64,000 bases of DNA from sequence record NC_047754.1. One strand, given 5' to 3'. Origin of the DNA: Escherichia phage phiAPCEc03. A program made the position numbers and the translations under genes. Position 1 is the stretch's first letter; each line of letters begins with the position of its first letter. Below, piece by piece: positions 1,892-58,709 of this stretch. The notes under the pieces were generated by a model, which worked only from the letters and a program-made list of their open reading frames with translations, searched no databases and was not told the DNA's origin.

Positions 1892-1899
1892 ATAATTCT

Positions 1900-2030
1900 T
1901 GGAATATGCCGGAATTGGTAGACGGGACTGCCGAATAGGTTTACTAGGAACATCCACTCCTAGAAATATACCTTAAAAGCGGTTGAGTTAAATGGTCTAA
2001 CTCATGAAGGTTCAAGTCCTTCTATTCCTT
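1900..2030 (+). ncRNA. tRNA-like structured element (oversized, about 130 nt)
   Basis: D-loop-like AATTGGTAGA near the 5-prime end, perfect T-arm GAAGG-TTCAAGT-CCTTC near the 3-prime end, acceptor-like pairing GGAATA/TATTCC, but 80 nt of extra sequence with two hairpins in between and no CCA. Confidence 0.3.
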
Positions 2031-2259
2031 GATACATCAATGGCTCAAAGTGTAACGGTGCTATTTGATGCTCTTGGAAAGACTTTCCCGACAGGCGTTC
2101 GGGGGTAAGCTTCTGAGGCTAGAATAGAAGAGTTTCTGAGAGCCGCCACAATTGAAAATTCGTACTCGTCTTGAGCTGCGTGCAATAGGGGATAACTTGA
2201 TTAGTATTCTAGAACATGCTAATTGAGGATGGTTTCGCTAACCCTGCGAGTTTTCAATT

Positions 2260-2336
2260 GTGGCTATATCATAATTGGTTAATGATCCTGATTGTGAATC
2301 AGGCCTATGTGGATTCGAATTCCACTAGCCACCCCA
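2260..2336 (+). tRNA. tRNA-His (anticodon GUG)
   Basis: Acceptor GTGGCTA/TAGCCAC, D-arm TCAT-AATTGGTTA-ATGA, anticodon arm CCTGA-TTGTGAA-TCAGG, T-arm GTGGA-TTCGAAT-TCCAC, CCA encoded. Confidence 0.85.
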
Positions 2337-31788: not shown

Positions 31789-31963
31789 TAATTAAAGTTG
31801 AAATAGTTTCATCCTGCAATTAAAATGGTTGCAGGATGAAACAGTTACCCTGCTAATAGTAACGGGGGTGGCGGTTAGCAGACTAAGTATTTCCGCCGGA
31901 GGCAGTGAGCACATCTTCATGTGTAATCTTAGGAAATTTGGCAAAAAGGTTAATTAGCGCTAA

Positions 31964-56262: not shown

Positions 56263-58709
56263 TGGCAATAACTACTAAGATTATTGTACAACAAATATTA
56301 AATATTGATGATACTAAAGCTACTGCTAGTAAATTTCCTAGATACACAGTAACTCTTGGAAACTCTATTAGCTCTATTACTGCTATAGAGTTAGTATCCT
56401 CTATAGAGGCCGCTGCTAAATCTGCTGCGGCTGCAAAAGATTCTGAAATAGCTGCTAAAACCTCAGAACTTAATGCTAAGAACTCTGAACAGGAAGCTGC
56501 TATTTCTGCTGGAGCTTCAGAAGCTTCTGCTAATCAGTCTGCTACCTCTGCTACTCAGTCCGCAGCGTCAGCCAATAAGTCTGCAGAATCCGCTGCCGCA
56601 GCTAAAATATCCGAGACTAATGCGAAGACTAGTGAAACTAATGCGAAGACTAGTGAAACTAACGCGAAGACTAGTGAAACTAATGCTGACGCATCAGCTG
56701 CTGCTGCAAAAATTAGTGAGACTAATGCAAAGGCAAGTGAGACTAATGCAGCTCAATCAGCTGCTGATGCAAAACTTAGCGAGGGTAACGCAAAGGTCAG
56801 TGAGACTAATGCAGCTCAATCAGCAGCTGATTCTAGCGGTTTTAGGAATGAGGCGGAAATATTTTCTGGGCAAGCTGCTGCATCGGCATCTGCGGCAAAA
56901 ATCTCTGAAACCAATGCAAAAACCTCGGAAACAAAAGCTAAGGCTAGTGAAACTAATGCTGCGGGATCTGCAACTTCTGCTAGCCAATCTGTAGCTACTA
57001 TTCAAGGACTTAAATCAGATGTCGAACAGTTAAAATCTGATACCCAGGACATTAAAAATAGTGCTATAACAGAGACAACAGCTTTAAAAGCGGATGTCGA
57101 ACAGTTAAAATCTGATACCCAGGCCATTAAAAATAGCGCTATAACAGAGACAACAGCTTTAAAAGCGGATGTTGAGCAACTAAAAACAGATACACAAGGT
57201 ATTAAGGATAGCGCGGTATCTGAGACAACAACTTTAAAAGATCAAGCTGCTGCTTCTGCTGCACAAGCAGGTAATAGTGCTGTTGAGGCCGGGCAACAAG
57301 CTAGCAATGCTGCTGGTAGTGCAAATAGCTCTAAAGTAGAAGCAGACCGTGCAAAGGCAGAAGCAGACCGTGCGGAAGTTGCAGCTAATAGGGATCCTGA
57401 TCTTCAACCATTCCCTGACGTATGGATTCCATTTAATGACTCGCTTGATATGCTCGCAGGTTATTCACCCGGCTATAAGAAAATAACAGTTGGTGAAGAT
57501 GTTATTACAATGCCTTCTGATAAGGTTGTTAGTTTCACGCGTGCGTCAAATGCAACATACATAAATAAGCATGGTGAATTTTGTATTGCTAATATCGATG
57601 AACCCAGATTTGAAAAGCAAGGACTCTTGATTGAAGGCCAGAGGACAAATCACATTACTTTCAGTAATGACCCCGCTTCACTAAATACAGATAAGCACCG
57701 TAGTGATGTTACTTATAATGTTGATAAGTATGGTTTTGCATATGCAACGGCTACAGCTAACGAAAATTCACATGGTGAGTACCCTTCATTATTTTATTGT
57801 AAAACCGTGAATGCAATCAACTGTCAGCAAAATGAATATGTTTCTTTATCTATACGAGTAAAGGCAAACTCGGATATCTATATCACCCCACAATTTTATT
57901 TAGTAGGTAAGGATGGAGGTCTTATTCTCGGTGCTAGATCTTTCATAAGTTGCGAAACCGGCGAAGTTTCTTCTGTAGTAGAAGGGAGGGGGACTATAGC
58001 ACATAGAATATATAGAGAAGACAACGGATGGTTGAAAGTTGAAGCTATGTGTAAATTTGTAGAACGTGGAGGTAGTTCTATTGGATCTGTAAATTATTGT
58101 CGGAATAATGATCAACCTTCGCAAGTTGGGGATACAATATCATTTTGTACTCCGCAATTTGAAAAGGGTTTTTGTGCATCCTCCTTCATTATTACGGGAA
58201 GCACTCCTGCAACAAGGGCTCTGGATTATGTTACTATACCTGCAAGAAATAATTTCTCAGGGACGAATATTTCATTCCTTGCTGAGGTAAGTATCAACTG
58301 GAATAGCTTTCAATTAGATAATATATACCCAATGATAGTGGATAACAACCACTACTTCGTAAGAGGAAAAGCATTTGTTGCGGAATTTGACAGAACCTCC
58401 GTTACACCTTACACGTATGTGGTAACTGAGGATGGATCAACTATTCTGTCCAGAGGTTATTCATTTGAAAAACAATTTTCTCCACATGTATTTGGTTTTA
58501 TTCTCAGTGGCGATGTAGAGGTCACCTCGTTTGTTAATGGTAATAGTGGTGAGACCTCACACGGTTCTACCTGGAAAGGAACGGACTCGGACGCACTAGT
58601 AGAAATAGGCGGTAGACTTTCAGATTCAACTAAATTGTATGGTCATATTCGTAACCTTAGAATATGGAATAGAGTATTAACAGATAGTCAAATGCGGGAG
58701 AAAGTTTAA
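56262..58709 (+). CDS. L-shaped tail fiber proximal subunit (LtfA-like) with tandem coding repeats
   Basis: 815 aa; Ala-rich SETNAKT-type repeats and three 27-aa repeats (DVEQLKSDTQ.IKNSAITETTALKA). Confidence 0.6.
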   Translation: MAITTKIIVQQILNIDDTKATASKFPRYTVTLGNSISSITAIELVSSIEAAAKSAAAAKDSEIAAKTSELNAKNSEQEAAISAGASEASANQSATSATQSAASANKSAESAAAAKISETNAKTSETNAKTSETNAKTSETNADASAAAAKISETNAKASETNAAQSAADAKLSEGNAKVSETNAAQSAADSSGFRNEAEIFSGQAAASASAAKISETNAKTSETKAKASETNAAGSATSASQSVATIQGLKSDVEQLKSDTQDIKNSAITETTALKADVEQLKSDTQAIKNSAITETTALKADVEQLKTDTQGIKDSAVSETTTLKDQAAASAAQAGNSAVEAGQQASNAAGSANSSKVEADRAKAEADRAEVAANRDPDLQPFPDVWIPFNDSLDMLAGYSPGYKKITVGEDVITMPSDKVVSFTRASNATYINKHGEFCIANIDEPRFEKQGLLIEGQRTNHITFSNDPASLNTDKHRSDVTYNVDKYGFAYATATANENSHGEYPSLFYCKTVNAINCQQNEYVSLSIRVKANSDIYITPQFYLVGKDGGLILGARSFISCETGEVSSVVEGRGTIAHRIYREDNGWLKVEAMCKFVERGGSSIGSVNYCRNNDQPSQVGDTISFCTPQFEKGFCASSFIITGSTPATRALDYVTIPARNNFSGTNISFLAEVSINWNSFQLDNIYPMIVDNNHYFVRGKAFVAEFDRTSVTPYTYVVTEDGSTILSRGYSFEKQFSPHVFGFILSGDVEVTSFVNGNSGETSHGSTWKGTDSDALVEIGGRLSDSTKLYGHIRNLRIWNRVLTDSQMREKV

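Follow-up and report, generated by a model that had tools for sequence, protein, structure and literature searches.

The transfer RNA (tRNA) cluster of phage T4 encodes two small stable RNAs, species 1 and species 2 (rnaD and rnaC), which are co-transcribed and co-processed with the phage tRNAs, and for which a dependence on RNase P and RNase E has been reported. Stems cut by RNase III, i.e., T7 R1.1 and the minimal substrate, those of the 16S and 23S ribosomal RNA precursors, and that of a T4 tRNA maturation step, consist of a helix of ~20 bp made by the flanks of the released RNA, with staggered cuts leaving 2-nt 3' overhangs, at least 11 bp between cut and helix end, and A-U pairs beside the scissile bonds. 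In Escherichia coli tRNA-His, RNase P keeps an extra 5' nucleotide, G-1, since this base pairs with C73. Here, we analyse a locus of Escherichia phage phiAPCEc03 (NC_047754.1) in which a long inverted repeat on the plus strand ties together the ends of three neighbouring RNA genes, RNA I, RNA III and tRNA-His. The stretch of DNA analysed, hereafter the window, is 64,000 nucleotides long and all positions are counted from its first letter.

The locus shares features with each of these systems. Like T4 species 1 and 2, it encodes small stable RNAs whose 5' and 3' ends pair; T4 belongs to another virus family, and its two RNAs are not known to show cassette polymorphism. The repeat has the helix length, the staggered ends, the distance between cut and helix end, and the A-U pairs of the RNase III stems. 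In contrast to these stems, the one here would release a small and variable cassette, its outer half has only 6-8 bp, which come from a CCA end and a tRNA 5' end, and the pair at position +2 of what is here a putative RNase III site is a non-consensus G-C. As in E. coli, tRNA-His has an extra 5' nucleotide and C73, but this nucleotide is a U, which is unable to pair with C73. The 5' end of tRNA-His may thus have to be fixed by other means, for which the helix is a candidate. What is new here is the comparative evidence for a conserved processing helix of 19-20 bp and for a polymorphic slot of RNA cassettes. The existing annotations of T5 and BF23 contain neither the 20-bp helix, nor its covariation, nor the polymorphism of the cassette.

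The phage is T5-like (Demerecviridae, Tequintavirus), with identities of 97-99% to T5, BF23 and numerous related phages at positions 1880-2400. The alignment of the window with T5 (AY692264) and BF23 (AJ604530) has no indels and a mean column identity of 99% (97.5-97.9% identity to T5 and BF23 across the 515 aligned bases of 1886-2400). The locus is the same in these phages, with shared neighbours (RNA1, tRNA-His and a small open reading frame, ORF) and few point differences, e.g., G2190, which is an A in both T5 and BF23. Their GenBank records annotate four consecutive RNA genes here: RNA1, RNA I (2042-2148, 107 nt), RNA III (2153-2258, 106 nt) and tRNA-His (GUG anticodon, encoded CCA; 2259-2336, 78 nt). 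RNA I and RNA III, entered as misc_RNA (rnaI and rnaIII), are separated by a 4-nt spacer, CAAU (2149-2152), and were described by the depositors as 'stable RNA with unknown functions'; the stability of RNA I (~107 nt) and RNA III (~106 nt) is taken from this note. ARAGORN and Rfam place tRNA-His(GUG) at 2260-2336; in the T5 and BF23 records, its first nucleotide is the preceding base, U-1 (2259).

The original prediction, made from the letters of the window, had proposed a small stable RNA, or else a processing or precursor structure, in a region free of credible ORFs and tRNAs. The small stable RNA is borne out by the T5 and BF23 records, which annotate RNA I and RNA III at exactly this stretch. 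Judged by its sequence, the feature is a rediscovery of these annotated T5 stable RNAs in a locus that was already known. The absence of credible ORFs and tRNAs holds as well: in 2040-2259, ARAGORN reports no tRNA, the ORFs have only 20-46 amino acids, and there is no match to an Rfam family even at E<=10. We rejected a protein-coding role because these short ORFs are not preserved when one cassette replaces another. A tRNA or a known RNA family was discarded after ARAGORN gave nothing for 2042-2258 and for five other cassette types, and neither did Rfam, whether with gathering thresholds or with E<=10. An inverted remnant of tRNA-His on the minus strand was also rejected, given that the match is only 14 nt and that the minus strand folds at the level of shuffles. 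In most recent records of T5-like phages, the stretch is left blank or given a spurious 'hypothetical protein'. Such coding sequences lie across RNA I and RNA III in several of them (L003, 404-583; L008, 563-769; L036, 311-472; L038, 266-451; L164, 284-379), and they are probably false gene calls because the RNA structures are conserved and the cassettes are replaced.

The inverted repeat is longer than initially described. The two 13-mers of the original prediction, CCACAATTGAAAA and TTTTCAATTGTGG, are present and complementary, although their coordinates were one base off and should read 2146-2158 and 2251-2263. Exact complementarity covers 14 bp, between GCCACAATTGAAAA (2145-2158) and TTTTCAATTGTGGC (2251-2264), and a repeat search extends the inverted repeat to 18 nt with 94% (2145-2162 and 2247-2264). 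When G-U pairs are admitted, there are 20 consecutive pairs between 2145-2164 and 2245-2264. The left arm, found in the context ...GAGCC GCCACAATTGAAAATTCGTAC... (2140-2165), includes the discriminator G and the CCA of RNA I, then the spacer CAAU, and finally 12 nt from the start of RNA III. The right arm, in the context ...GCGAGTTTTCAATTGTGGCTAT... (2246-2267), includes the last 14 nt of RNA III, followed by U-1 and by G1-C5 of tRNA-His (ARAGORN, 2260-2336), in agreement with the overlap with the start of this tRNA that had been noticed before. Exact inverted repeats of 14 bp whose arms are no more than 150 nt apart number three in the window, compared with a mean of 0.10 in dinucleotide-preserving shuffles, where 7 of 100 had any. 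The inverted repeat is thus real and not a chance match.

The closing stem of RNA III accounts for the inner 12 bp of the helix, and in the precursor it is lengthened by the outer 8 bp, which supports the processing or precursor structure proposed initially. In the outer part, the 3' GCCA of RNA I and the spacer CAAU (pairs 5-8 of the helix) pair with the end of RNA III and with nucleotides 1-5 of tRNA-His, with GCCA-C of RNA I facing G-UGGC of tRNA-His. Each arm contains a CAATTG palindrome, at 2149-2154 and 2255-2260, and each palindrome contains an annotated RNA end (CAAU/UG, at 2152/2153 and 2258/2259, the slash marking the cut).

We collected the junction from 38 loci of GenBank phages and IMG/VR contigs, which represent 22 distinct sequences. 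The slot between the CCA of RNA I and tRNA-His contains at least six different cassettes, of 33-149 nt, that replace one another. Among 50,697 phage records, the 111-nt cassette of the window (T5, BF23) is found in 281; the others are those of 149 nt (KKP_3711 and many Klebsiella phages; 66), 68 nt (S113, Ob_P and OSY-STA; 65), 126 nt (polluks; 55), 138 nt (bastian, TrudiGerster and LVR16A; 15) and 33 nt (S124; 2). Their interiors are unrelated (z<=1.5 for pairwise local scores relative to shuffles), with the sole exception of the 149-nt and 126-nt cassettes. We suspected a common motif, GAYUAAC, but rejected it: no 6-mer occurs in three or more of the interiors. RNA I types and cassette types are found in mosaic combinations among relatives. 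A scan of metagenomes with the 16-mer GAGAGCCRCCACAATT gave, among the matches listed, two T5-like loci out of at least 120, both with the T5-type cassette, the others being chance matches. A scan of viral contigs with the 5' end of RNA I gave the same contigs as the first viral-contig scan.

In all six cassette families, pairing starts at the discriminator or the CCA of RNA I, runs for 19-20 helix positions, and then ends. We used 11 distinct junctions, aligned by position alone without structure-guided fitting, to quantify this trend. Pairs are formed in 97.7% of the cells, with compensatory double changes at 9 of the 20 pairs. These values were equalled in none of 500 shuffles, and sliding the partner strand by 1-3 columns reduced pairing to 31-46%. 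Covariation is found even within the flanks that appear 'invariant': pair 10 changes from G-C to A-U in S124, and pair 12 from A-U to G-C in KKP_3711 and LVR16A. The helix is also present in Sugarlandvirus (Klebsiella phages), where RNA I has different ends (GGCCC...GGGCC-A-CCA) and the acceptor strand of tRNA-His is GGGAUAU. The junction reads CCA-AAUUUGAG on one side and CUCAAAUUU-GG on the other, and the register is shifted: the partners of the RNA I CCA are U-1, G1 and G2 in place of U2, G3 and G4, and the helix again has 19 positions counted from C74 of RNA I. The original prediction had made its case depend on the conservation of the repeat in related phages; the helix is kept, with compensatory changes, in six cassette families and two virus groups. 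These comparisons indicate that the helix is selected as an RNA structure, in which the conserved elements are its length and its start at the CCA of RNA I, and not its sequence.

RNA I and the cassettes also have structures of their own. In RNA I (5' GGCUC...GAGCC-G-CCA 3'), a terminal stem of 5 bp is followed by the discriminator and by an encoded CCA. Relatives carry 30 distinct variants of it, which belong to three sequence types and whose ends are conserved. Its consensus structure shows compensatory changes at pairs 21:85, 22:84, 24:82, 47:60 and 50:58, and the terminal stem shows a change from U-A to C-G in Sugarlandvirus. RNA III folds into a 12-bp closing stem (2153-2164 with 2245-2256), beyond which its 3' end protrudes by 2 nt (AU), and into three internal hairpins, among them 2196-2227 and 2231-2243. 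Its energy of -30.7 kcal/mol is lower than expected (z = -2.7, none of 200 shuffles being as stable), and its minus strand is unstructured (z = 0.05 relative to shuffles). The ends of the two RNAs are different, with a 5-bp stem and GCCA tail in RNA I and a 12-bp stem and AU without CCA in RNA III. Among the other cassettes, the 149-nt family has a closing stem and three arms, with compensatory changes in 13 of 51 pairs in only six sequences, whereas the 33-nt cassette of S124 is reduced to 11 helix positions and a GCAA tetraloop, i.e., a 28-nt hairpin.

Folding of the entire precursor (2042-2336), as had been suggested with the original prediction, gave a minimum energy of -100.9 kcal/mol (z = -4.1 relative to shuffles). 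The minimum-energy fold includes the 20-bp helix and leaves the acceptor stem of tRNA-His unformed. When we forced the acceptor stem to form, the energy was -92.2 kcal/mol, a cost of 8.7 kcal/mol.

We think it likely, with a probability of around 70%, that the inverted repeat is a precursor processing helix that separates RNA I, RNA III and tRNA-His. The comparison leads to a testable hypothesis, that of a double-stranded site coupling the maturation of these three RNAs. The helix would tie the CCA of RNA I to the start of tRNA-His until a single staggered cut separates them. If RNase III cut both strands at CAAU/UG (2152/2153 and 2258/2259), it would produce the two ends of RNA III with a 2-nt 3' overhang, and RNA I would retain a trailer of 4 nt (CAAU) that has to be trimmed as far as the CCA. 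The double cut would also free the 5' strand of tRNA-His, in T5 with the extra U-1, such that the acceptor stem could form. The mutual sequestration would then end, with the CCA of RNA I uncovered and the acceptor strand of tRNA-His released. That the host RNase III is the enzyme cutting the helix is a more tentative proposal, to which we give slightly less than even odds.

The geometry of the ends is an argument for this enzyme. The 5' end of RNA III (2153) pairs with 2256 and its 3' end is at 2258, leaving a 2-nt 3' overhang if the annotation is experimental. Since the two CAAUUG palindromes pair together, the annotated cuts are symmetric about the dyad and 2-nt 3' overhangs are found on both products, which is the signature of RNase III. 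The dimensions of the helix are also suitable. It has 20 bp in the window and 19-20 positions in the six cassette families and in Sugarlandvirus, compared with the ~20-22 bp of RNase III substrates. Inward of the cut, the helix continues for 12 bp in five of the cassette families and for 11 positions in the 33-nt cassette. For E. coli RNase III, Pertzev and Nicholson (PMC1540722) give 11 bp as the shortest reactive distance between cut and loop; one pair less results in a 50-fold loss of reactivity, and the minimal substrate yields a 28-nt product. The same work gives a consensus with A-U or U-A at +1, A-U at +2, A-U or U-A without G-C at +3, G-C at +4, and U-A and U-G at +10 and +11, where a G-C at +3 would block the binding of RNase III. 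The 11 junctions follow this consensus in part: the pairs beside both cuts are A-U or U-A, that at +1 being U-A, and the pair at +3 is an invariant A-U, in both cases as the rule predicts. The pair at +10 is U-A in 9 of the 11 junctions and that at +11 is U-G, U-A or A-U. There is also a precedent among phages, as E. coli RNase III participates in the maturation of T4 tRNAs (PMC4810235).

Several observations weigh against these proposals. The pair at +2 is G-C where the RNase III consensus has A-U, and the pair at +4 is A-U in 8 of the 11 junctions and the consensual G-C in only 2. The RNA ends are those of the GenBank annotation, and a full-text literature search returned nothing on RNA I and RNA III of T5 or BF23, on their processing, or on small-RNA sequencing of T5, nor any experiment on rnc dependence in vivo or on cleavage by the pure enzyme. 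For Sugarlandvirus, cutting symmetrically about the palindrome CAAAUUUG would leave 2-3 extra nucleotides on tRNA-His. Direct production of the 5' end of tRNA-His by RNase III is therefore not general, and the making of the U-1 end in this way can apply to the T5 group only, at most. Phage Eos retains the helix though no tRNA-His follows, and tRNA-His of the Proteus phages of Novosibvirus is preceded by a 14-bp hairpin only, too short by the 11-bp rule. Finally, the outer 4-5 pairs are partly forced by sequences that are required anyway, the GCCA of RNA I and the GUGGC of tRNA-His, the latter presumably being also the 5' end of E. coli tRNA-His.

The two exceptional loci can be described further. 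In Eos (L165, ~170-470), RNA I, a cassette of the 149-nt type and the full helix are followed, after the right arm, by TACTCAAATAAAAGCG..., and not by tRNA-His. In Novosibvirus (L039 and L040, ~370-510), the hairpin UACAUUUAAGAAUC / GGUUCUUAAAUGUG overlaps the first 3 nt of tRNA-His (U-1, G1...) and is located after a second hairpin and a CCA-ending tRNA.

The main rival of RNase III is RNase P, which would cut on the 5' side of RNA I, RNA III and tRNA-His. Under this hypothesis, RNA III mimics a tRNA in cloverleaf form, with the 12-bp closing stem in the role of the stack of acceptor and T-stem that RNase P measures, its 3' end is what is left by the cut at tRNA-His, and the outer 8 bp are incidental. 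All three annotated 5' ends are preceded by CAAU (AUCAAU/GGCUC at 2041/2042, CACAAU/UGAAAA at 2152/2153 and UUCAAU/UGUGG at 2258/2259), which could reflect a leader preference of the processing enzyme, and RNase P prefers a U at -1. Yet RNase P requires an unpaired leader, and here 8 bp extend past the cut in a helix that was kept through the register shift of Sugarlandvirus. The shapes of the RNAs speak for this route in some respects and against it in others: the closing stem has 12 bp in five of the six cassette families, but the smallest cassette has 11 positions; RNA III and the 149-nt cassette fold as four-way junctions, but the tail of RNA III is a 2-nt AU and not NCCA; RNA I has an acceptor-like stem and GCCA, but neither it nor RNA III is seen by ARAGORN or the Rfam tRNA model, even at E<=10. 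In addition, U-1 does not pair with C73, such that canonical cleavage would miss the annotated end at 2259. We consider this route unlikely, while regarding it as the alternative to be taken most seriously. The helix could also be explained by the mature RNAs, as the protective closing stem of interchangeable phage RNAs acting in trans, e.g., as decoys for tRNA-directed nucleases or other defences, its extension into the neighbouring genes being a by-product. The cassettes are indeed discrete alleles, each highly conserved, they are combined with RNA I types as a mosaic, and the 149-nt family has an internal structure of its own with the compensatory changes mentioned above. T5 tRNAs are now known to counteract tRNA-cleaving defences (PMC11464382; PMC10644984), and the polymorphism of the RNA III slot is a pattern typical of loci under conflict-driven selection. 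This account of the helix, which is compatible with the processing one, seems doubtful to us: the 33-nt S124 cassette is a hairpin that keeps the full helix with no room for a functional body, the outer 8 bp are conserved outside mature RNA III, in the shifted register included, and the RNAs have no known target or partner.

Two further explanations dispense with processing. The repeat could act in DNA, as the terminal inverted repeats of a small mobile cassette or as a hotspot of recombination or homing, given that unrelated inserts are found between identical flanks (...GAGCCGCCACAATTGA and TCAATTGTGGC) and that HNH homing endonuclease genes are present in the same tRNA region of T5. We find this very improbable because the arms obey the pairing rules of RNA, and on the plus strand only: they accept G-U and not A-C (U-G at pair 15 in 7 of the 11 junctions and G-U at pair 13 in 4 of 11), and the minus strand folds like shuffled sequence. 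Moreover, the RNAs are annotated as stable transcripts, and the sequences of the inner arms vary with the cassette, leaving no common end of the type used by transposases. An intrinsic terminator or attenuator before tRNA-His is hardly credible, and we rejected it as a weak consensus match only. A consensus scan does report a weak site at 2234-2250, followed by TTTTCAATTG, but its stem has just 5 bp, the scan gives 8 such sites where 3.3 are expected from shuffles, the stem and the U-run are missing from the other cassettes, and tRNA-His has no plus-strand promoter of its own. Coming back to the processing helix, its broadest version would combine a conserved RNase III module with a hypervariable slot in which at least six structured RNAs can replace one another, the range extending from a bare hairpin of 28 nt to a four-way junction of 144 nt, with the T5 cut, rather than RNase P, setting the U-1 end of tRNA-His, and with cassettes that are perhaps anti-defence or decoy RNAs. 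We put forward this joint reading with reserve, as it is more probably wrong in some part than right in all.

Upstream of RNA I lies RNA1 (1898-2041, plus strand), located by the gap-free alignment with BF23 and T5, where it is annotated as misc_RNA (rna1). Its annotated 3' end adjoins the 5' end of RNA I. It resembles a tRNA-Leu in its acceptor, D, variable and T arms, with an anticodon arm extended by ~40 nt that ends in a conserved apical loop, AACAUCCAC. ARAGORN makes no call for RNA1, and the Rfam tRNA model gives 23.9 bits, below the threshold, for its 3' part only (1962-2030). It is named tRNA-Leu in one GenBank record (JLBYU40) and 'tRNA-like RNA with unknown functions' in BF23 and T5. 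On the plus strand from RNA1 to tRNA-His, no promoter is annotated or predicted by a consensus scan. Therefore, RNA1, RNA I, RNA III and tRNA-His are most likely part of one shared transcript.

Three other tRNA genes of the region are not reported by ARAGORN. The first, at 709-783, has an Rfam tRNA score of 40.3 bits. Another, at ~1480-1573, ends in CCA and is roughly in the place of T5 tRNA-Ser2, as judged by eye. With its UCC anticodon loop and unusual D arm, the third, at 2692-2763, seems to be the counterpart of the gene annotated as tRNA-Gly in T5. T5 st0 encodes an HNH endonuclease (L001, 2179-2760) between the small ORF that follows tRNA-His and tRNA-Gln. This gene is missing from the window, where the ORF at 2362-2535 directly precedes tRNA-Gln at 2526.

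The window's remaining exact 14-bp inverted repeats lie far from this locus. One is a perfect 14-bp hairpin at 31806-31842 (GTTTCATCCTGCAA-TTAAAATGG-TTGCAGGATGAAAC). The third arises from a direct repeat, GACTAATGCAGCTCAATCAGC, present in two copies ~65 nt apart at 56741-56832, and from palindromes containing CAGCTG, in what looks like a repetitive coding region.

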